The position numbers and the translations under genes are program-made. Below, in pieces: positions 2,115 to 59,147 of a DNA stretch of 64,000 bases. A model generated the notes under the pieces. That model saw nothing but the letters and a program-made list of their open reading frames with translations, had not been told where the DNA came from and made no database searches. How positions within the stretch are numbered: position 1 is the first letter of the stretch; each line of letters starts with the position of its first letter. The DNA is from a virus (taxonomy: Duplodnaviria; Caudoviricetes). The stretch is from positions 55,673-119,672 of IMG/VR virus record IMGVR_UViG_3300033463_000038; one strand, written 5' to 3'.

Positions 2115-3873
2115 TTCTATCCTTTACCAACTGGCTGAAGCAGCCCTTCTTCTGGACTCTCAGCGTCTCGAACTTATATTGTATTTGACTAAAATTTAGA
2201 TCATTTAGCTTGTGAGAAATTAGGTACACGCCGAGATTGCTGTCGCCTTGAATCATCGTGATCAGCTCTTTCAGGAAGTCCGTAATGCCTTCGCCGTCGA
2301 TGCCAGTGTCGAAGATCTCGTCCATGAACAGAATAGAGCTAGACCAGTTAGACAGCTGTTTAGCGATATCGTAGAACGTGAGCAGCATAGCGACGTTCAC
2401 TCTCGTCTTCTCGCCGTTCGATAGTCCGTTGTATTCCATTTCGAACGCGCCACGAGTGAGCGTATACTCGAGCATGCTGTCGAAAATGACTTCGACGTTC
2501 AAGCCGAACTTCTTGATGTACTCGTTGATCTTGAGATTCAGAATCGGAACGATCTCCTCGAAGAAGTAGCGCTTGATTCCGCTGTCCGACAGAATCGTGA
2601 TGAGATCCGTTGCGATCGCAATTCTCTCTGAGGTGTCGTCGAGAGTGTCGTTGCAGATTTTGAGCTGCTTTCGATACTCTTCTACGCGCTTTCTCTGGTC
2701 GGTCGGATCGAACCCGTTTGTCTCAGCCTCGATCTCTCTATACTGCTGCTCGTCGTAAGAAATGCCACGTTTCAATCCCTCGATGACCGTCTGCTCTGTC
2801 GAAATTCTGCTCTTCACTTTTTCGTAAAAAGCCTTAGAGTTGCGCATCTTCTCAGCGCTTTCCTCGTCTGCTTTCTGCTTCTCGTTCAGAGTGTCGTAGA
2901 ATCTCTGCTCCATGTTGATCTCTGCGAGAATTCCGTCGAAATACTCTTTCGCGTGATCCGAGCAAAAATCTGTCCCGCATATCGGACACTTGTTCTTATC
3001 GTGGAAGTCGTAAATCTTCGTAAGGCTCGTCACCTTCGCCTTGTGATCTGCGAGTCCAGAGACGCGCTCACGGATCCTCGTCATCGTGTCATCGAGTTCC
3101 GCAAAGTCGGACTCGAGTTCGGCGCACTTCTCTTCGCACTTTTGAATGTTGCTCTCATGCTTCACCAAGTCGGATTTCTGCTGTTCGATATGCTCTTTCA
3201 CCTTCTCTAGCCTGTCCGCTTTGTTCGTTTCGAAATTGCGGCTCTTCTGCTCCATGTCAGCGATGATCTGGATCAAGTCGTCTATCGAGTTCTCGAGGCC
3301 CTTCTTAGTTGCGCTCATCGTCTTGATGGTGATGTTGTCGTTAGAGCGTCGTTCCTTCACCTCGTCGAGCATATCCGCGATGTTCGTGAGTCCGAATATC
3401 GTCTCGAGCAGCTCCCTTCTATCTGACAGACACATATTGAAGAACGGCACGTTCGAGATTGCGCCGATACACATCACATTCTTGAACAGCAGATATTTGA
3501 CGCCGAGCAGTTTGTCGATCTCGAGCTGATTGAGCTTCTTCGAGCTCAGCGCCTCTACCATCTCTCCGTTCTTGTACAGTTCGAACTTAGACGGCGCAAG
3601 GCCTCTCAGCATGCGGTAGGAATCCTTGCCGATGTCGAACTGGATCTCTACCTCTAAGTGGCGCTTATTGATGTAGTTTACCAGGCTCTTCATTTTGATG
3701 TCACGATAGGGCTTACCGAAGAGCACGAACGAGATAGCGTCAACGATTGTCGATTTTCCTGCGCCGTTCTGAGCGTTGATCAGGTTGAGTTTGTTGTTGA
3801 AGTTCAGGGTAGTCCACCCGTTGCCATAGGACAGGAAGTTCTTGAACTTGAGCGTATTAAACTTGATATACAT
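2092..3873 (-). CDS. 46: recombination ATPase, Rad50/SbcC-like (T4 gp46)
   Basis: KNFLSYGN, Walker A NGAGKST, coiled coil with CPIC zinc hook, LSNGEK signature, MDEIFD Walker B, ISH. Confidence 0.95.
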   Translation of the reverse strand: MYIKFNTLKFKNFLSYGNGWTTLNFNNKLNLINAQNGAGKSTIVDAISFVLFGKPYRDIKMKSLVNYINKRHLEVEIQFDIGKDSYRMLRGLAPSKFELYKNGEMVEALSSKKLNQLEIDKLLGVKYLLFKNVMCIGAISNVPFFNMCLSDRRELLETIFGLTNIADMLDEVKERRSNDNITIKTMSATKKGLENSIDDLIQIIADMEQKSRNFETNKADRLEKVKEHIEQQKSDLVKHESNIQKCEEKCAELESDFAELDDTMTRIRERVSGLADHKAKVTSLTKIYDFHDKNKCPICGTDFCSDHAKEYFDGILAEINMEQRFYDTLNEKQKADEESAEKMRNSKAFYEKVKSRISTEQTVIEGLKRGISYDEQQYREIEAETNGFDPTDQRKRVEEYRKQLKICNDTLDDTSERIAIATDLITILSDSGIKRYFFEEIVPILNLKINEYIKKFGLNVEVIFDSMLEYTLTRGAFEMEYNGLSNGEKTRVNVAMLLTFYDIAKQLSNWSSSILFMDEIFDTGIDGEGITDFLKELITMIQGDSNLGVYLISHKLNDLNFSQIQYKFETLRVQKKGCFSQLVKDRNEQGSPS

Positions 3874-20419: not shown

Positions 20420-20454
20420 TTGAGTTTCTCCGGTTAAAGTTCTTTTACATATAC

Positions 20455-20483
20455 AATATAAGTATTTTCAAGAGAAATCTAAA
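20455..20483 (-). promoter_or_regulatory. early promoter, TTTAGA-N17-TATATT
   Basis: Minus strand reads TTTAGAtttctcttgaaaatactTATATT, identical to the copies at 34436 and 34896. Confidence 0.75.
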
Positions 20484-20586
20484 CAGAAAATTGAGATTTT
20501 CTCATTTTTTCTGAATATGAGACGAAATATGCCATTATGCTTAAATTGAGTATATTTGACGTTTGAGCTATTATAAATAACAGGAC

Positions 20587-22579: not shown

Positions 22580-23374
22580 ATGAACAACATGGTTTATATC
22601 GGAAACGCTGGATCCAAGAATCCAGGTATCACTTGTCTTCTCAGATGCGCAATCTTCAATCTAGAAGAGAATTCCGACTGGGAAGGAATCGACTACGTCA
22701 AGAACGCTTGGTTCAACGAGGACGGCATCTCTGTCGAGATCGATCAGGAGGGCTGGGACAAGCCGATGTCCGATGAGGAGTTCGCTGAGCTGCCTGTCGA
22801 TCTCATCAATCAGATCATCCGTGAAATTCCAAAGGTTATATCCGGAATCATGATAAACAGCGAGCAGCAGACTGAAGAAGATAAGATCGCTGAGCTGGAA
22901 GACATCATAAACAACTCCGAAGAGACAACCGTCAAGGGAGGAGGAAACTTCGAATATGGGGACGAGAAGATCGCACTTCGTCTTCTGAGACAGGCTAAAG
23001 CTAGATATTCCGCTAAAGGTCCGGTCGAGTCTATGAAGTTCGGAGAAGCTAAGAGAATTCTCGAAGCTGAGGGACTCAAACTATCTAAGGACTGCTGCTC
23101 TAAGAAGCGCAAGAGAACTCTGAAGGAATCTAGCCTGACTATCTGGGACTATCTTGACGAGCTAGAAGAGATCGATCCGTCTGCTAGAGAAATGATGATC
23201 GAGGAGCTGATCGAGAACTCCGACACTATCGTTCGTGGAGATGACGGCTGCTACTACGACACTTCGATCGGCAGAGACAGCATGACCGATGATCCGATGG
23301 AATTGATCCAAGACATCAGCTATGATGATCTAGTCGCCGATTACGGAACACCAGAAGAGTTCGCAAACAACTAG
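22580..23374 (+). CDS. acidic hypothetical protein, probably head-internal
   Basis: 264 aa, acidic; contains ESMKFGEAKRILEAEG. Confidence 0.6.
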   Translation: MNNMVYIGNAGSKNPGITCLLRCAIFNLEENSDWEGIDYVKNAWFNEDGISVEIDQEGWDKPMSDEEFAELPVDLINQIIREIPKVISGIMINSEQQTEEDKIAELEDIINNSEETTVKGGGNFEYGDEKIALRLLRQAKARYSAKGPVESMKFGEAKRILEAEGLKLSKDCCSKKRKRTLKESSLTIWDYLDELEEIDPSAREMMIEELIENSDTIVRGDDGCYYDTSIGRDSMTDDPMELIQDISYDDLVADYGTPEEFANN

Positions 23375-23435: not shown

Positions 23436-23660
23436 ATGATCACTAACTCTACTGACGCAACCATCGACAGCAACGACTTCATCATTCAGTCTATGCGCAA
23501 GCTCAAGCAGCGCCTCGAGATCGAAGAGAACGACATCAAGTCCTACAAGATTCCGGAAGGACTCCAGGGCTCTGCTCTCGCTTCTGAGAAGGCCTACATC
23601 AAGGGCGCTCTCGACGAGATCCAGAAGTTCCGCCAGTTCATCAAAGAGATGGGCGTCTAA
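23436..23660 (+). CDS. hypothetical protein
   Basis: AAGGAG SD; followed by a terminator. Confidence 0.65.
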   Translation: MITNSTDATIDSNDFIIQSMRKLKQRLEIEENDIKSYKIPEGLQGSALASEKAYIKGALDEIQKFRQFIKEMGV

Positions 23661-23690: not shown

Positions 23691-23722
23691 GAAGCGCTGG
23701 TCGAGAGACCAGCGCTTCTTTT
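23691..23722 (+). terminator. rho-independent terminator
   Basis: gaagcgctggtc-GAGA-gaccagcgcttc-tttt. Confidence 0.85.
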
Positions 23723-23828: not shown

Positions 23829-23954
23829 TTATGCGCAATTAACCGCATGTTCGCTTTTTCTCTTCTCGAAATAGTCTTTAACGTTCTCTGTGCGATCGGC
23901 TCTGATCTCTTCTTCGCTGCGATCGACTTCAATTTCGATTCCGTCTGGTCCCAT
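23829..23954 (-). CDS. 41-aa micro-protein carrying the RxxRxxxVKxYF motif
   Basis: AAGGAG SD; MGPDGIEIEVDRSEEEIRADRTENVKDYFEKRKSEHAVNCA; second gene of an early operon; not in the ORF track. Confidence 0.7.
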   Translation of the reverse strand: MGPDGIEIEVDRSEEEIRADRTENVKDYFEKRKSEHAVNCA

Positions 23955-23963
23955 GATTACTCC

Positions 23964-24302
23964 TTATGCGATAGAGCGCTTCTCGTAGACACGAACTGTG
24001 ATCACATCGTACTTCTTCAATTTCTGCAGACGCTTGAAGAGCTCTTCGACACTCTTGACGCTCTTGCGTTCATCCTGCTTGTCGTTGTCGTACGTGATGA
24101 GGGCTTTGTCTCTTAGGTTCTCGTCCATGACGAAGCCGACCTCTTCGAACTGTTCACTTTCCTCCTTCTCGCCATCGATGTAGATAATGGTCCAAATGCT
24201 TTTCTTGAGAGCCTTTGGAAGCTTCGCTTTCGGAAATACCGAATTAACAGCGTTGCGGTAGATGTTGTAGACGTCTTGGGCGGTTTCGGCGAGATATTTC
24301 AT
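23964..24302 (-). CDS. hypothetical early protein
   Basis: AAGGA SD; early promoter at 24336-24364. Confidence 0.65.
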   Translation of the reverse strand: MKYLAETAQDVYNIYRNAVNSVFPKAKLPKALKKSIWTIIYIDGEKEESEQFEEVGFVMDENLRDKALITYDNDKQDERKSVKSVEELFKRLQKLKKYDVITVRVYEKRSIA

Positions 24303-24335
24303 AGTTTTGGTCCTTTTTGTTAAGTTTACATGAGT

Positions 24336-24364
24336 AATATAGGTATTTTCATGAGAAATCTAAA
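24336..24364 (-). promoter_or_regulatory. early promoter, TTTAGA-N17-TATATT
   Basis: Minus strand reads TTTAGAtttctcatgaaaataccTATATT. Confidence 0.75.
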
Positions 24365-24436
24365 CCCATAAACACGAATTTTTATGCTGCAAATAGTTTC
24401 TAAATTAACTATTGAAAAGCGCTAAAACGAGAATTT

Positions 24437-27400
24437 ATGTACAAAAACGTCTACTACGACCGTGAGTCCAATTCGATTTTCGAACGTGAAGTTGGCTCGA
24501 CAGAATACGTCAAGCATCCGTACACTTTCAAGTACTTTATGCCCGACTCGACGGGACAGAGTCCGATTCGAGACTGCTTCGGCGTACCGATGAAAGAGGT
24601 CGTATGCAAGACGAAAGAGGACTATCAAATCTATCGCGTGATGTCGAAGAAGATGCGCTTAGCGGAGTCCGACCTCAAACCTCCCGTAAAATACATTCAC
24701 GAGAAATACGACACCGCAGAATTGAACTACGAAGAGTACAAGGACTACCGCATCGCCTTCTATGATATCGAAACGCAGACTTCGAGACGCTATTACCTCA
24801 ACAAAGAAGTGAAACTTCGCTTGATCGAGGACGGACACGAAGAGACGATGACCCTGTATCAGTTCGAGCACACTTGCAAGACGAGAAAATGGGAAGTCTG
24901 GGACATCGTCCGTAACGAGTGGCGCAAATACTACGACAGCTGCTTCATAAATCAGGAATTTCCTAATCCGGAGGAAGCGAACTATCCGATCAACCTGATC
25001 ACTGTCTACTCGACGGTCGCTGGCGAGACTTTCACTTGGGGTCTGGAGCCGTATGAGGGCAACTCTCCAGAAGTGACAAACTACAAATGGTTCGAGTCCG
25101 AGCTAGAGATGATGAAGGACTTCTATGTATGGTTCTGGCAGCAGAAGTTCGATATTCTGACTGGCTGGAATTCTGAGAAGTTCGATGACGCGTATATCAT
25201 CGGCCGTATGCAGAAGATCCAACGAGAGAACGGCGTCAAGCTCGATTACACACGTCTGCTTTCTCCGCTCAAACTTCCGCCTCAGAAGCGCCCAATCACC
25301 GACGACAAGGGTAAAGTAACGGGATTCCACTTCTCGTCTCCAGGCCTGTATATGATCGACTATCTCCAGCTCTACAAATTCATCGGCTTCGTGAAGAACT
25401 CGCCGTCGTGGAAGTTGGACTACATCGGCAAGAAGGAAACTGGAGAAGGAAAGGTCAAACTGGAATATGGTCTTACCGAGCACTATATCAAGGACTACAC
25501 GACCTACGTCGAGTATAACGTGCAGGACGTTCGATTGATGGTGAAGATCGAAGAGAAAAAGCGTCTGTGGCCGACGACTATCGCCTACGCCAATGAAGCT
25601 CTAATCACTCTTGACTCCGTCTTCGCGATGACGGCCGCACACGACGGCTATATCATGAAATTCCTCCATGCGCAGAATCAGGTCTACAACGACCGCTACG
25701 AAAAGCCGAACGACTGGTGGTACGAGGAAGGATATTGGAAGAAGGATTTAGGAAACGGTATCATCGAGTATCAGAACTGCCCGCTGGAAACGCCGACTTC
25801 GTTCGAGCCGTATGCTGTGAAGGCAGGTTACTGCTACGCTGATCCAGGCCGTTATCAGCACAACATGAGCGGCGACATTACGTCATCCTATCCGAATCAC
25901 ATCATCATGTACAACATCTCTCCCGAGACTCGTGTCATTAAGCCGAGTCAAGAGGATATTGATTCCGGAAAGGTTATCTGTTCGGAAGTCAACGGAGTCG
26001 GATTCATCAACAACGACTGCGCTATTCTGCCGTCTGTCGTTTCCAAGATCTTCGACGAACGTCTCAAGTTCAAGCTGCTCATGCAGGATGCCGAGAAGGC
26101 GGGCGACAAGATCGCTGCCGACCGCTACCGCACACTGCAGCTCACCCGTAAGAAGCTCATCAACTCTCTATACGGCGCTTGTCTGTTCCCGCAGTTCCAC
26201 CTCTTCAACATCGACTGCGCTCGCTCCATCACCCGTTGCGCTCGCGTCACCATCCGCTACCTCAAGGACAACACGGACCGCTACTATCGCTCCAAGTATA
26301 TCCTCAAGGATTCGATGGACTTCTTCCCTGTCATCAAGATCAACACCAAGTGGTACAAGAAGGAAGACGAAGTCGAAACGGATCAGGGCAAGATTCTCGC
26401 GAAGGACGTAACGACCGCCAATACTATCAACGGTGCGGCTGTAACCGTCTTCGTGAACGACCTCACTAAGAAAGACCTTCTCAATCCTATCAAGAAGATC
26501 ACGACCGAGCGTATCATCAACGTGGTCTACGACGGCGACTGCCACTACTTCAAACCGGGCGACGAAATCGAAGTCGAGATGGATGGAAAGAAGATCAAGA
26601 TGCAGTTGGGCGTCAAGGACGGCGGTGCAAGATTCACAGGCGAAGAGACCATCATGGAAGAGCTCAAGGCCAACTTCAAACATCCTGATGGCTCTACAAT
26701 TTCCGGTTTCGATCTGCAGCGCAACGCTAAGATCAACGGCCGTCCAATCGACAACGTGAACGTGATCGAGAAGCCTATCAAGTTCGTGGATCGTGCGTCT
26801 GTCGTCGTTCAGGTCGACACCGACTCTAACTACTACTGCTTCGACGAGCACAAGATCAACCTCTTCCCGTACATGGACGACATGGAATGGTTCTACTGCA
26901 TGGAGAAGCAGATGAACTGGTTCTGGAAGCGCATTCTGGACGCGAAGGCCGAGAAGAACAAGATGCACAACCGCATCATCTTCACTCGCGAGAATATGTT
27001 CTCGAACTTCATCTCTTACGGAAAGAAGCTCTACCTCGGATCCGTCGTCGACAAGGACGGCAAGTATTTCGGATACGAGGAAGATCCTCACAAGCACTTG
27101 AAGATTCAGGGTCTAATTCTAAAGAAGGCCGAGTTCCCTCCGTTCTGTCAGGAATATGCAGTCAACATCACGGCTGCCGTTCTGCTCGGTCAGGACAAGG
27201 AAGAGACGACGAAACAAATTCAAGACGCTTACATGAAATTCAAGGCGTCCAAGCCAGAGGATATTTCGTCGTCCCGCACTATCGGCGACCTCTCGGTTAT
27301 GCCTCACGAAATCGACTGGTACGTCAAGAACGGCCTCTCATATCCGGACCGCATTCACTACGCGGCAAAGATCGGCGTGAACTTCAACTACGTGAACGCT

Positions 27401-27673
27401 AAAGAGAAGCTCGGTTACGACCCGCTGCAGCGTGGCTCGAAGGGTAAGTATCTCTTCCTCTATCCGCGAAACAAATACGGTTTCGACCAGATCGCTTTCG
27501 AAAAGTGGCCGAAGGAATTTGACCAAATGTTCGAGATCGACTACGACACTACCTTCGAAAAATTCTTCATGTCCAACTTCCACGCGCTATTCGAGGTCGT
27601 TGGATGGGCGGACTCAAGAAAAGACTATATTGAGTATAAGATGACGAAGGCGAAAAAGAAGTTCCTGAGGTAA
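24437..27673 (+). CDS. 43: family B DNA polymerase (T4 gp43-like) with insertions
   Basis: ExoI YDIET, ExoII GWNSEKFD, ExoIII YNVQD, motif A DITSSYP, motif B KKLINSLYG, motif C VDTDS, KKLY. Confidence 0.95.
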   Translation: MYKNVYYDRESNSIFEREVGSTEYVKHPYTFKYFMPDSTGQSPIRDCFGVPMKEVVCKTKEDYQIYRVMSKKMRLAESDLKPPVKYIHEKYDTAELNYEEYKDYRIAFYDIETQTSRRYYLNKEVKLRLIEDGHEETMTLYQFEHTCKTRKWEVWDIVRNEWRKYYDSCFINQEFPNPEEANYPINLITVYSTVAGETFTWGLEPYEGNSPEVTNYKWFESELEMMKDFYVWFWQQKFDILTGWNSEKFDDAYIIGRMQKIQRENGVKLDYTRLLSPLKLPPQKRPITDDKGKVTGFHFSSPGLYMIDYLQLYKFIGFVKNSPSWKLDYIGKKETGEGKVKLEYGLTEHYIKDYTTYVEYNVQDVRLMVKIEEKKRLWPTTIAYANEALITLDSVFAMTAAHDGYIMKFLHAQNQVYNDRYEKPNDWWYEEGYWKKDLGNGIIEYQNCPLETPTSFEPYAVKAGYCYADPGRYQHNMSGDITSSYPNHIIMYNISPETRVIKPSQEDIDSGKVICSEVNGVGFINNDCAILPSVVSKIFDERLKFKLLMQDAEKAGDKIAADRYRTLQLTRKKLINSLYGACLFPQFHLFNIDCARSITRCARVTIRYLKDNTDRYYRSKYILKDSMDFFPVIKINTKWYKKEDEVETDQGKILAKDVTTANTINGAAVTVFVNDLTKKDLLNPIKKITTERIINVVYDGDCHYFKPGDEIEVEMDGKKIKMQLGVKDGGARFTGEETIMEELKANFKHPDGSTISGFDLQRNAKINGRPIDNVNVIEKPIKFVDRASVVVQVDTDSNYYCFDEHKINLFPYMDDMEWFYCMEKQMNWFWKRILDAKAEKNKMHNRIIFTRENMFSNFISYGKKLYLGSVVDKDGKYFGYEEDPHKHLKIQGLILKKAEFPPFCQEYAVNITAAVLLGQDKEETTKQIQDAYMKFKASKPEDISSSRTIGDLSVMPHEIDWYVKNGLSYPDRIHYAAKIGVNFNYVNAKEKLGYDPLQRGSKGKYLFLYPRNKYGFDQIAFEKWPKEFDQMFEIDYDTTFEKFFMSNFHALFEVVGWADSRKDYIEYKMTKAKKKFLR

Positions 27674-34412: not shown

Positions 34413-34464
34413 ATTAAGATTTTCTGAAAAATCTATTTAGATTTCTCTTGAAAATACTTATATT
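34413..34464 (+). repeat. 52-bp direct repeat copy 1, containing an early promoter (34436-34464)
   Basis: Identical to 34873-34924. Confidence 0.85.
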
Positions 34465-34492
34465 ATTCTTGGAAAATCAAAGGGAGTTTAAG

Positions 34493-34872: not shown

Positions 34873-34924
34873 ATTAAGATTTTCTGAAAAATCTATTTAG
34901 ATTTCTCTTGAAAATACTTATATT
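34873..34924 (+). repeat. 52-bp direct repeat copy 2, containing an early promoter (34896-34924)
   Basis: Identical to 34413-34464. Confidence 0.85.
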
Positions 34925-34970
34925 TACTATGTAAACAACAAAAGATCTAACTTCAACAAGGACCATAACT

Positions 34971-40417: not shown

Positions 40418-40455
40418 AATCTCTGTGGAATTTCCACAGAGATTTTCTTGTTTTT
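40418..40455 (+). terminator. terminator / palindrome
   Basis: aatctctgtggaa-t-ttccacagagatt followed by a T-rich tail. Confidence 0.75.
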
Positions 40456-40459
40456 AGGG

Positions 40460-40488
40460 TTTAGAATTCTCATGAGAATACCTATATT
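40460..40488 (+). promoter_or_regulatory. early promoter, TTTAGA-N17-TATATT
   Basis: TTTAGAattctcatgagaataccTATATT. Confidence 0.75.
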
Positions 40489-40518
40489 ATAGGCGTAAAC
40501 AAAAAAAAGACTGCCAAT

Positions 40519-55166: not shown

Positions 55167-55226
55167 AATAGCTATTTCCTTTGTGCAAATGCACGGTTGT
55201 CATGACATTTTTATTGATAAAAAGGG

Positions 55227-55255
55227 TTTAGAATTCTCATTGAATTACCTATATT
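55227..55255 (+). promoter_or_regulatory. early promoter of the paralogue array
   Basis: TTTAGAattctcattgaattaccTATATT. Confidence 0.75.
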
Positions 55256-55259
55256 AGCT

Positions 55260-55532
55260 GTGAATATGAATCAAAGGACCAACAACATAATCGTATCACT
55301 AAACGATAAAGGAGTTCCATCCACTAGAAAACGTCCCGTTCTCGGTGATATGTACATAACGCAAAGTCTAACCGATCCAGAGATGTACGACCAATGGATC
55401 TGGTCTGGAGATACTCTCGAATGGCAGAGGCTCGGAAGCATTCCGTTTTTCGATGAGGAGAAGGCTATGAGAAATGAACGAGTTGAGAATGTCAAGACGT
55501 ACTTCAGAGAACGAAAGGGGGCATCGAAATGA
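55260..55532 (+). CDS. YF-motif family member 1
   Basis: Ends MRNERVENVKTYFRERK. Confidence 0.7.
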   Translation: MNMNQRTNNIIVSLNDKGVPSTRKRPVLGDMYITQSLTDPEMYDQWIWSGDTLEWQRLGSIPFFDEEKAMRNERVENVKTYFRERKGASK

Positions 55533-55593
55533 ACGACTTTTTGACAAATAGGCGGTCGCAGGCTCTATACTTCGGTCCTTGCGGATGGTGCGT

Positions 55594-55941
55594 ATGATCA
55601 CTTCAAGAGACGCTTTCATGATACTCGACAAGAACGGATTTCGCGTACCGAACGGTAGTCAAGATGACGGCTACGGAGCGATCACGTACAACGGCGAACG
55701 AGTCGGAACGCTGTATGAGGATGAGGTCTACATCGCGTCAGAGTTTCCGCATCTCCGCAACAAGTCCTACGCTGACACAAAGAAGCAGGGAGCGATCAGG
55801 CTAGCTTCACGCACAGCGAGATCAGATCTAGAGTACTGCATTCAAGTCTTGTTCAAGTCTCCAGCTGCTTTCGAAGAGGAGATGAGGAACGAACGTGTCA
55901 AGAAAGTCAGACGCTATTTCGATACAAGGAAATTCTACTGA
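55594..55941 (+). CDS. YF-motif family member 2
   Basis: YNGERVGTLYE; ends MRNERVKKVRRYFDTRK. Confidence 0.75.
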   Translation: MITSRDAFMILDKNGFRVPNGSQDDGYGAITYNGERVGTLYEDEVYIASEFPHLRNKSYADTKKQGAIRLASRTARSDLEYCIQVLFKSPAAFEEEMRNERVKKVRRYFDTRKFY

Positions 55942-56378
55942 TGAAGCTCGTGAAAGTAGGAACGATAGTCAAACACTTGAAAGAGCTCGGCATTGAGTGC
56001 AAGTACATGAGTGGATCCTTCGTTAGTCTGTATTGGAGAGGCGAAGACATAGGAAATATCTACGAGAGAGATGGTGCAGATAAGCCTCTAGTCGTTCATA
56101 TTCTCGCCGATCTGAGAGCGGTCGCTGGACCTAACCCTGATGCTGTCGACATCCAGATCTACTGAAACGACTGGAAGGAGACACTAGGCGCTGCTGTCTA
56201 TCACCTGCAGGGATCAGAAGAGCGTTTCATCGATATGACCAGGGCAAAGCGAGTCCGTAACGTCCAGCAGTATTTCGAGAAAAAGAAAGAAAGATACCTG
56301 AGGACTATGATGGGTCGTCTCTCCGATGCGCTAAATGAAGTTGGAACGGCGTTCAAGGAACTGAAGGAGGACTCATGA
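55941..56378 (+). pseudogene. YF-motif family member 3, interrupted by an in-frame TGA at 56163-56165
   Basis: Frame continues after TGA through RAKRVRNVQQYFEKKK to a stop overlapping the next ATG. Confidence 0.7.
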
Positions 56379-56740
56379 GATTGACGTACTACGAAGCAAT
56401 GAATCTCTTGAAGTCGAAAGGTATCGAGTTCGACGGCAACGAACTCCTTCTCGATGGTGAAGTCGTAGGACATCTGTGGGAAAGGGTGCTCGTCATATCC
56501 AACGAAATTCCGTCTCTGTACAATCGTCTGTATGCCGAGATGGAGAAGACTAGGATCGGATTGAGCAGCGCCGATGCCAAAGAAGCGATCTCAAGGGCAG
56601 TCAAATCTCTCAAATCGTCACCCGTTCGATACGAGAAGACATTGAGAGATATGAGAATCTCTGATATACGCGACTACTTCAACAGACGCAAGAACGCTGT
56701 AAACGAAATTGAACAATTCATGTTGGCGGAGATGTGCTGA
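56375..56740 (+). CDS. YF-motif family member 4
   Basis: DGEVVGHLWE, IPSL, RDMRISDIRDYFNRRK. Confidence 0.75.
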   Translation: MRLTYYEAMNLLKSKGIEFDGNELLLDGEVVGHLWERVLVISNEIPSLYNRLYAEMEKTRIGLSSADAKEAISRAVKSLKSSPVRYEKTLRDMRISDIRDYFNRRKNAVNEIEQFMLAEMC

Positions 56741-57192
56741 TGGAACTGCTTGACAAGACAAGAGGACCTCTTCTCGGAGGTGTCGCTAACAACCGCAACT
56801 TCGCAGTCAATTACATGCGCAATCACGGATTCGAAGTCAAAGCGGACGACATGTCTGAATTTCCGCAGAAGCGCTATTACTATCTTCGTGGAGAGCTCGT
56901 GGCGTGGTCGTATGAGAATATCATCTATCTCCAACAGGTTCTGCCATCGCTCATCAAGATGGGTATTCTGGAGCAGAGAAGTAAGACCGAGATACCGTTC
57001 GATCTGCCAGGCATCGAGGTCCACAATCGTCTGCAAGCCGCTGTGAAGGAACTCAAGAACAGCTCGGATTCTTATGACGAGCTAGTCAAGAAGTCGAGAG
57101 TGCAGAAGGTCAGAGAGTATTTCAAGTACAGGAATATCGCGAAAGAGAATTCAATAGAGTACAACAAGCTAATGAAAGGGCTAATGAGATGA
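56734..57192 (+). CDS. YF-motif family member 5
   Basis: RGELVAWSYE, LPSL, KKSRVQKVREYFKYR. Confidence 0.75.
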   Translation: MLMELLDKTRGPLLGGVANNRNFAVNYMRNHGFEVKADDMSEFPQKRYYYLRGELVAWSYENIIYLQQVLPSLIKMGILEQRSKTEIPFDLPGIEVHNRLQAAVKELKNSSDSYDELVKKSRVQKVREYFKYRNIAKENSIEYNKLMKGLMR

Positions 57193-57629
57193 CGAGGGAG
57201 GAAGTCGAACAAGGAATAGTCGATCTGGGATACTCTACTAACAGAGATCAGGTCAAGAAAGGCGCATCGGTGAGTATACTGATCGATGGCGAGATCGTAG
57301 GACTGCTAGGGCAGGAATCTCTACAGCTAGCAGACTACATTCCTAGCATAGTGGGAAAGGATTGGTTGACTATCAACAGACGAATATTCGTGTATTACCG
57401 GATGGAGAACATGGACGGCGTCAAAAAGGCTCTAGAAGAGCTGAAAGACAGCGCAGCGAGATATGACAGAGATCTGAGAGAGCGGAGAAAGCTGAATGTC
57501 AAGATGTACTTCAAAGAGCAAGAGCTGAAGAAGATGAAGCGAAGAGAGCTCATCTCTAGTTTCAAGCGTGGAGAGCATCTCTCACGAGAAGAGCTACGAG
57601 AGCTGTCTGCTATGGGGTATGCGCTATGA
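57189..57629 (+). CDS. YF-motif family member 6
   Basis: DGEIVGLL, IPSI, RERRKLNVKMYFKE. Confidence 0.75.
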   Translation: MTREEVEQGIVDLGYSTNRDQVKKGASVSILIDGEIVGLLGQESLQLADYIPSIVGKDWLTINRRIFVYYRMENMDGVKKALEELKDSAARYDRDLRERRKLNVKMYFKEQELKKMKRRELISSFKRGEHLSREELRELSAMGYAL

Positions 57630-58297
57630 CAAAGTCAGAGGTACGTGATCTGTTCATCCGCAGAGGATTCAATCTGAGAGAGGAGAAGAGCCAAGACTAC
57701 ACAGTCGTCGAGCGCAACGGCGAGGTAGTGGGCACTATCTATGATGAGGAAGTCTACATAGCTGACAACTATCCGTCTCTCAACCAGGGTAAATCACCAA
57801 CTTACACAGACACTACGAAGACTATCGTCTCATTCAAGAAGCCGTTGAAGATGGTAGAAGACGCGATAGAGTTTCTCTTAGATTCTGAATATGTATCTAG
57901 GACAAGAGAGATTGCAATTGAACGGCTTCAGGCAGCTGGTCTCGAAGTTACTGATGTACCGCGAGACAAGACGAAATATCCCGATCTTCACTTCGAGATA
58001 TGTTATCACGGCGAGAAGGTCGGTGACATATACGAAAACGAGATGTATCTCGCGACAGCGCTGCCTTCTCTAGAACAGCTGGGCGTATTCACGTCAGTGT
58101 ATAAGAGCTCGATAGCTTTCGGTGTTCAGAGCGCTATCGATCTGCTTCTGACTGAGACGTTAGAGAGACTGAAGACTTCTGCAGAGAAATACGACGATCT
58201 TGTACGTGAGAAGCGCATCACTGACGTTCGAAACTACTTCAAAGACAGAGAAGACACAGAGTTCGTTAAGTCACTACATGACGCAGACAGGAGCTGA
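57626..58297 (+). CDS. YF-motif family member 7 (duplicated N-terminal domain)
   Basis: Two GE.VG.IY[DE]...PSL domains; REKRITDVRNYFKDR. Confidence 0.75.
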   Translation: MTKSEVRDLFIRRGFNLREEKSQDYTVVERNGEVVGTIYDEEVYIADNYPSLNQGKSPTYTDTTKTIVSFKKPLKMVEDAIEFLLDSEYVSRTREIAIERLQAAGLEVTDVPRDKTKYPDLHFEICYHGEKVGDIYENEMYLATALPSLEQLGVFTSVYKSSIAFGVQSAIDLLLTETLERLKTSAEKYDDLVREKRITDVRNYFKDREDTEFVKSLHDADRS

Positions 58298-58299
58298 GT

Positions 58300-58743
58300 A
58301 TGAAGCTGAGCAGAACTGAGTGCATAGAGATGATCGAGAGAGCTGGAATGGAAGTCCAAGTGAAGAACGACATCATCAACGCATATCGAGACAGAGTATT
58401 GTACAAGGGCGAGCGAGTGGGCACTGTGTACTACGACAGCGTATCTCTCAGCCCTCACTACGACTATGACGACGATCCAGTGAGGATCCAGTTCAAAGAC
58501 GAGCCCGCGGCAGAGAGGTTAGAGAAATCTCTCAAGCTGCTAGTCGATTACGAAGCTGTCAAAGGCATGAGAAATCCAGACGCCGAAAGAGAGCTGAGAA
58601 TTCAGAGAGTAAAGAACGTCCGCAAGTACTTCCAAGACCGCAAGGACGCAGAGACGATACTATCTCAGCCGACATACGACTACGAGAAACTGATCAAGCA
58701 GTTGACCAAACTGTCAACAGAGGAGAATCTCAAATGCTGTTAG
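58300..58743 (+). CDS. YF-motif family member 8
   Basis: YKGERVGTVYY; RIQRVKNVRKYFQDRK. Confidence 0.75.
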   Translation: MKLSRTECIEMIERAGMEVQVKNDIINAYRDRVLYKGERVGTVYYDSVSLSPHYDYDDDPVRIQFKDEPAAERLEKSLKLLVDYEAVKGMRNPDAERELRIQRVKNVRKYFQDRKDAETILSQPTYDYEKLIKQLTKLSTEENLKCC

Positions 58744-59147
58744 CAATCTTAGCAGCTATCTATATCATCGTACTCATATCAGCACTACTGTACATCCTCG
58801 GATGCTTAGTAGCAAAGCGTATGATCTCAAGGCGAAAGAAGTATCAAGATCATATCGACGATCTGGTAGAAGAGCTGTTCCCTCCATCTATCCAAGACTC
58901 TTCTGCTATAGACACGACTGTCCAAGACACGACTGTCCAAGAAGCTGCTGTCATCGAGTCCGATCTCCAGCGCCAAGAGACCAAGCGCAAGATGGTCGCA
59001 GACATCAAACGGTACTTCAATCAACGCAAGATGGACGCAGCTCTTCGAGATACAGAGAACAAGATAGGTCTACCGACGAGCTCGCCCATGTTATCCGATG
59101 GACCAGTCAGACCGACTCCTCCCTCTATAGGTCTATGGCTCGAATGA
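58734..59147 (+). CDS. YF-motif family member 9, N-terminal membrane anchor
   Basis: About 26-aa hydrophobic helix then basic residues; KRKMVADIKRYFNQRK. Confidence 0.7.
   Translation: MLLAILAAIYIIVLISALLYILGCLVAKRMISRRKKYQDHIDDLVEELFPPSIQDSSAIDTTVQDTTVQEAAVIESDLQRQETKRKMVADIKRYFNQRKMDAALRDTENKIGLPTSSPMLSDGPVRPTPPSIGLWLE

Follow-up and report, generated by a model that had tools for sequence, protein, structure and literature searches.

The locus analysed here is a 41-codon open reading frame on the minus strand at 23829-23954 of the window, by which we mean the whole 64,000-nt stretch of DNA under study. The micro-ORF begins with ATG, and a Shine-Dalgarno (SD) sequence, AAGGAG, lies 5 nt before the start codon at 23960-23965 on the same strand, as the preliminary description of this DNA had reported. 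This ribosome site overlaps the TAA stop codon of an upstream ORF of 112 codons (23964-24302, minus strand), which implies that the two form a coupled two-gene unit with the 112-aa gene as first cistron. The unit is divergent from the DNA polymerase gene (24437-27673, plus strand), and a 12-bp GC-rich hairpin at 23691-23718 is a likely terminator common to the convergent units. The sole family match of the 112-aa protein, AbiJ_NTD4, is weak and below threshold (E 0.006; 17.5 bits, where the cut-off is 34). No above-threshold match was returned by Pfam, PHROGs or NCBIfam for the micro-ORF and 112-aa products, for the 92-aa and 115-aa proteins discussed below, or for any of the array members.

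A repeated promoter-like element is present at the locus (24297-24382, minus strand), with hexamers TTTAGA-17-TATATT at 24336-24364. There are nine copies of this element in the record, one of them ahead of the array of related genes described below (55224-55256, plus strand) and the others at 20444-20484, 34436-34475, 34896-34943, 40445-40509 and three sites upstream of the window. The element has the consensus GGGTTTAGATTTCTC ... TAC[CT]TATATT and is positioned 30-45 nt ahead of an AAGGACC-type ribosome site. Several copies have an inverted repeat immediately upstream, an arrangement that recalls the PeSL cassettes of T4-type phages. The micro-ORF had been described as lying under another copy of the array's promoter. 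A copy is indeed found at the locus, but it precedes the 112-aa gene, and the micro-ORF is thus the second, translationally coupled cistron.

Contrary to its earlier description as unannotated, the micro-ORF is a called gene on JGI contigs: the identical 41-aa product is called on two other JGI assemblies, within 841 nt that are 100% identical to the window. This identity excludes an assembly artefact. It also means that the 41-aa allele, being the same in all assemblies, offers no variation for a test of selection. The shortness of the ORF might nevertheless invite the view that it is an artefact or an unexpressed chance reading frame. We regard this as extremely improbable given that three assemblies are identical, that the SD sequence is strong and correctly spaced, that the head of the ORF is under protein-level constraint in its homologues, and that the repeats at the junction are too short for misassembly.

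The 119.7-kb virus record that contains the window is estimated to be 47% complete; there are relatives 243-248 kb long, and one of them has terminal repeats. The phage is a myovirus with a T4-like PolB, a helicase and a tail sheath, and is distant from any named phage. Its PolB is 25-28% identical to those of cyanomyoviruses, and a search of the phage collection found no DNA relative of the window. Comparison with other contigs places the micro-ORF at the edge of a variable cassette (23839-24388) between the flank of a 74-aa gene and the polB leader, where backbone homology breaks. Homology to relatives L001, L002 and L003 ends at 23838, and restarts beyond the cassette at 24389 (L003) or 24368 (L001 and L004). 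On the near side it is the 3' flank of the 74-aa gene (23436-23660) that is conserved, from 23838 downward. Because this flank is common to relatives without the cassette, the last three codons of the micro-ORF and its stop codon are backbone sequence. The cassette site amounts to 42 bp in L003 and ~1.9 kb in L002, where it holds a 260-aa gene on the opposite strand and 114-aa, 92-aa and 113-aa array-type genes on the strand of the micro-ORF. The 112-aa protein of the window is 35% identical to the product of the L002 114-aa gene; despite this low protein identity, conservation between the two alleles extends over the promoter and the first 40 nt.

Conservation of the micro-ORF itself is lacking among these relatives. 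L001, L003, L004 and L005, the polymerases of which are 89-97% identical to that of the window, have no trace of it at the site, and L002 carries the 92-aa gene in its place. The complete relative G005 was searched for a 92-aa-type motif, and none was found. The preliminary description had stated that its functional reading would fall if the ORF were neither translated nor conserved in related phages, and the non-conservation seen here comes close to that outcome.

The micro-ORF encodes a helix bearing the motif RxxR[VI]xx[VI][RK]xYFxxRK, here termed the YF motif. This motif is defined by a tightly packed array of paralogous genes (55260-59147, plus strand) ~31 kb from the micro-ORF, the distance originally given. 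To score the micro-ORF, a profile HMM was made from the nine array motifs with the micro-ORF left out, and was run against every six-frame segment of the 119.7-kb record. The micro-ORF was hit with an E value of 4e-7 (27.5 bits), the next non-family segment scoring 1.6, and the claim that it contains the motif therefore stands far above chance. It is identical to array member 1 at 11 of the 20 residues quoted in the earlier comparison. Only twelve residues precede the helix, and no part of the micro-ORF aligns with the alpha/beta N-domain of the array family. The YF-helix family comprises ~92 clusters at 50% identity, and the Y and the F are the only invariant columns among 66 family sequences. 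Codon usage varies between copies of the motif, indicating that it is conserved as protein and not as DNA. A DNA or RNA element was considered and rejected, the codons differing among copies and Rfam giving one sub-threshold match only.

The motif occurs in a variety of protein contexts. It follows an alpha/beta domain in some proteins and a transmembrane anchor (58734-59147) or unrelated N-termini in others, and in the 92-aa protein it lies near the N-terminus. Residues 10-37 in a profile of the 92-aa family align to the helix at the C-terminus of the array proteins (hhalign 93%, E 2.6e-7, 28 columns), and this helix is the sole part that the two families have in common. The earlier proposal that the motif works autonomously is upheld to the extent that these varied contexts and the profile alignment identify a transferable module; it does not extend to the peptide as a dedicated minimal effector or competitor. 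Proteins of 248-250 aa that end in the motif (...VSGYFDKRRS) are encoded in L001 (1733-2485) and L002 (735-1481), where they occupy the position of the 264-aa gene of the window (22580-23374), which implies that the motif has spread over several variable loci. Array member 3 (55941-56378, plus strand) is a single 145-codon frame with one TGA codon in frame (56163-56165), which may be a nonsense mutation or a site of read-through. The frame is thereby divided into an N-domain ORF of 74 aa and a 47-aa ORF (56235-56378) whose start lies almost at the YF motif, and so presents a second motif-first small ORF, apparently derived from a broken family member; none of the array loci examined has an orthologue of it. 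A 243-aa protein of L048, a TARA ocean contig (1450-2181), has the sequence ...VIKNIKDYFEQQ near its N-terminus, which is probably a chance resemblance to the motif.

In the AlphaFold2 (AF2) model of a 121-aa array member (pLDDT 96), residues 1-80 form an alpha/beta domain with the signature helix-G ... GExVG ... PSL, and residues 82-120 form a 39-residue helix that bears the YF motif. Residues 64-121 superpose on single long coiled-coil helices, suggesting that the motif is displayed on a protruding helix. Foldseek searches of the PDB and BFVD gave no match at E <= 0.001, PDB sequence profiles no match, and the ESM Atlas no usable lead. The best VIA-align scores (Z 5.2) were to common alpha/beta folds (YjbR, frataxin, MotA C-domain and T3SS chaperones) and are too weak to name the fold. 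The YF helix is most likely a free-standing amphipathic docking or oligomerisation helix that would tie diverse small phage proteins to a common partner. Clamp-binding (PIP-box) peptides have the pattern Qxx[ILM]xx[FY][FY] at a terminus and occur alongside a phage-encoded sliding clamp. The hydrophobic-xx-YF spacing of the motif fits this pattern, and its position 1 is V, I or T, not Q. The clamp-binding idea was dropped because no gp45 C-domain (PF09116) was found in G000, G002 or G005.

We sought the origin of the micro-ORF by searching a large protein collection with its 41 residues. The search returned 52 clusters (at 90% identity) of a 92-93-aa protein, together with three other short forms (34, 37 and 38 aa) and one protein of 115 aa (P0057). 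The members of the 52 clusters have the first ~30 residues in common with the micro-ORF, at 74-84% identity. Their sequence starts MGPDGIEIEV, has the YF motif at residues 21-34 and continues for 58 more residues; residues 1-10 and 13-20 are invariant, save for position 16, which is conserved at 90% or more. In the AF2 model of the 92-aa protein (pLDDT 70), a strand (residues 7-11) and a helix (14-34) that contains the motif are followed by a second strand (46-50) and two further helices (55-68 and 74-91). The micro-ORF is without residues 35-92 of the family, corresponding to this second strand and both helices, and no copy of that C-terminal part was found elsewhere in the 119.7-kb record. 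The 92-aa member P0006 matches the micro-ORF at all but one of positions 1-26. P0057 is typical of the array type, and its final 15 residues are identical (15/15) to those of the micro-ORF. The genes for these two proteins are neighbors on the same contig (P0006 at 1119-1397 and P0057 at 1401-1748), 3 nt apart in the order 113 | 92 | 115, and the 92|113 gene pair has the same 3-nt gap in every context that we read.

The two ends of the 92-aa gene evolve very differently. Across 92-aa genes, codons 1-27 have a pN/pS of ~0-0.2 and codons 31-92 one of 0.3-1.0. Between the close alleles L002 3235-3513 and L046 2501-2779, the C-terminal 62 codons have pN/pS near 1 and the head is nearly invariant. 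The 92-aa protein thus looks like a fast-evolving specificity part mounted on a fixed handle.

At the DNA level, the head of the micro-ORF (codons 1-30, 23865-23954, minus strand) is homologous to the 5' end of the 92-aa gene, matching L002 3424-3526 (78.6%) and L045 up to position 1020. In both cases the homologous stretch begins in the promoter region, takes in the start codon and ends just past the YF codons, at 23865. The tail (codons 27-41 plus stop, 23829-23876, minus strand) is the part with 15/15 protein identity to the C-terminus of P0057. Relative to L045, near-identity persists until ~nt 74 of the ORF and is then replaced by differences at synonymous sites, which places the crossover in codons 23-27 (23874-23888, minus strand), within the YF motif. 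The two parental genes and the gap between them, counted from the start of the first to the stop of the second, cover 630 nt, from which the 126-nt ORF leaves a loss of 504 nt, a multiple of 3. The putative distal junction, with a tail from a P0057-type gene, is placed by protein identity alone. P0057-type parental DNA was sought in viral contigs with an exact 29-nt pattern and in metagenome contigs with a degenerate tail pattern, and not found, the only return for P0057 in these two collections being a TARA contig with a chance-like match to the motif. Taking head, crossover and tail together, we are confident that the micro-ORF is an in-frame deletion chimera of two neighboring YF-helix genes of a large gut phage.

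These features suggest the following course of events. An ancestral cassette would have contained three co-oriented genes under one promoter-like element, encoding proteins of ~113 aa, 92 aa and 115 aa, the last of array type. The YF helix would have been located at residues 14-34 of the 92-aa protein and near the C-terminus of the 115-aa protein. In-register exchange between the two YF-coding stretches would then remove the 504 nt, and with them the part of the 92-aa gene that encodes the C-terminal two thirds of its product, as well as the part of the 115-aa gene for the entire globular domain. What would remain are the first ~26 codons of the 92-aa gene and the last ~15 of the 115-aa gene, joined so as to encode one hybrid but complete YF helix. 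Recombination between repeats is in principle reversible, as the mini-circle integration of T4-type phages illustrates (PMC2839356), and the 41-aa ORF might on that account be the ancestral minimal gene, with the 92-aa and 115-aa genes formed when DNA was inserted into its motif. That direction of change is very hard to credit: the 92|113-115 pair occurs widely and with deep divergence between copies (pS up to 0.7), family members normally have the array-type architecture, and the short alleles nest within two different clades of the pair.

The last of these points comes from a comparison of the short alleles, which recur across samples. Three contigs, each from a different sample, carry the 37-aa allele, and two samples contain the 38-aa allele. 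Both have the junction seen in the window allele and fuse the head of the 92-aa gene to the tail of the downstream 113-aa gene: in L002 coordinates, position 3425 is joined to 2922 via the 8-nt sequence TACTTCGA, which encodes YFE. Over the first 81 nt, the window allele is nearest to an L045-type head (7 differences, against 16-19 to others), while the 37-aa and 38-aa alleles are nearest to an L002-type head (2 to 7 differences). That the heads are of two parental types implies that truncation has occurred at least twice independently and that the short forms are derived. They are rare, accounting for 4 clusters against the 52 clusters of 92-93 aa. Two 37-aa alleles are separated by 4 nt differences, all synonymous, and have differing upstream contexts; the synonymous-only differences could reflect purifying selection on the short form, and fit independent origins from constrained parents equally well. 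On two contigs with the 37-aa allele (L040, positions 1-230, and L042) the upstream 114-aa gene has also been deleted, from its own start-codon context to that of the next gene with an overlap of 9 nt, and as a result the micro-ORF is directly under the promoter-like element. Two metagenome proteins, P0147 and P0136, look like additional cases of rearrangement around the motif: in one the YF motif is present twice in tandem, and the other has an N-terminal 20 residues joined to the C-terminal helix by an internal deletion.

What the deletion product does is a separate question from how it arose. With its ribosome site, start codon and coupling to the 112-aa gene all kept, the peptide is probably still made. 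In-register crossover between copies of the motif yields an intact frame and an intact motif automatically, and no selection is needed to account for either. We therefore lean towards the micro-ORF being a tolerated loss-of-function allele, a by-product of a dispensable accessory module. Considered as a whole, a deletion scar combined with such an allele is the best explanation of the locus and, we think, a likely one. Since the retained head is the most constrained part of the 92-aa protein, the remnant may retain binding, and any residual activity would consist of occupying whatever the YF helix docks to.

The preliminary description saw in the peptide a competitor, regulator or minimal effector of the array system. 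This is not supported by our analysis, in which the peptide is the deletion product of two longer genes. The same deletion origin could still be combined with retention for function, such that the lone YF helix competes with or caps the nine array proteins. In keeping with such a role, it is the complete and most conserved module of the 92-aa protein that has been kept, behind a good SD sequence and coupled to an expressed-looking unit under the array's promoter-like element; the YF helix is predicted to be free-standing; and short alleles recur across samples and contexts, two of them separated by synonymous differences only. Other observations speak against such a role. Frame and motif are preserved by the crossover itself, the short alleles are polyphyletic as well as rare, and the 41-aa allele, which does not vary, leaves nothing from which to gauge selection. 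Such a gene is absent from the site in four close relatives, the parts removed by the deletion are not found elsewhere in the record, and the peptide has lost the strand partner and the two helices of the parental fold. On balance we consider retention for function unlikely, and selection of the peptide specifically as a competitor or regulator is correspondingly doubtful. A bolder form of the idea, which we offer as speculation and do not expect to be correct, is that the YF helix is an autonomous hub-docking element and that recurrent motif-to-motif deletions yield helix-only peptides that are kept to tune or block recruitment of array proteins. If true, phages would have a counterpart of microProtein regulation, supplied on demand by a recombination hot spot that the family itself carries.

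Reading the micro-ORF as a tolerated deletion scar removes a tempting over-reading, that of a minimal effector proving that the motif acts alone, and puts a documented mechanism in its place. Among these uncharacterised jumbo-phage proteins, the conserved helix emerges both as a common protein module and as a place where genes are repeatedly broken and rejoined. The helix-only alleles provide a natural set with which to ask what the helix binds. They also carry a warning that very small, motif-only ORFs in the variable regions of phages may be scars rather than genes.

Chimeric or truncated genes are a known product of unequal or in-register crossing-over between paralogues. The micro-ORF resembles such products in that co-oriented neighbors with a conserved stretch have lost the intervening DNA and left a hybrid frame. 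It differs in that the common stretch is only a ~28-residue helix with 8-20 nt of real DNA identity, which brings the event closer to microhomology-mediated deletion than to classical homologous exchange. In the hyperplastic regions of T4-type phages, small ORFs are gained and lost by way of short repeated promoter-terminator cassettes (PeSL), in which a sigma-70-like early promoter adjoins a stem-loop (Arbiol et al. 2010, PMC2839356; also PMC4122927). Our locus has much in common with this shuffling, namely a T4-like myovirus backbone, conserved genes on either side of a variable cassette whose small ORFs are non-essential, an association of that cassette with a repeated promoter-like element and a stem-loop putative terminator, and gain, loss and replacement among very close relatives through exchange at short repeats. 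However, the crossover that gave rise to the micro-ORF joined two copies of a protein motif within coding sequence and did not fall in intergenic regulatory elements. The outcome is accordingly an in-frame chimeric ORF, and not a clean excision.

At the protein level, the micro-ORF has the head (residues 1-30), ribosome site and cassette position of the uncharacterised 92-aa family but not the rest of its fold, and has the helix and P0057-identical tail of the equally uncharacterised YF-helix array family but not its alpha/beta N-domain. MicroProteins are small single-domain proteins that titrate their larger relatives, as do the LITTLE ZIPPER proteins of plants and the Id proteins of animals. 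Like them, the micro-ORF product is short and made up only of the candidate interaction element of a larger family; unlike them, it originates from a recent deletion and is not a conserved gene. The micro-ORF thus adds a new example to a known process, in a protein family that is itself uncharacterised.
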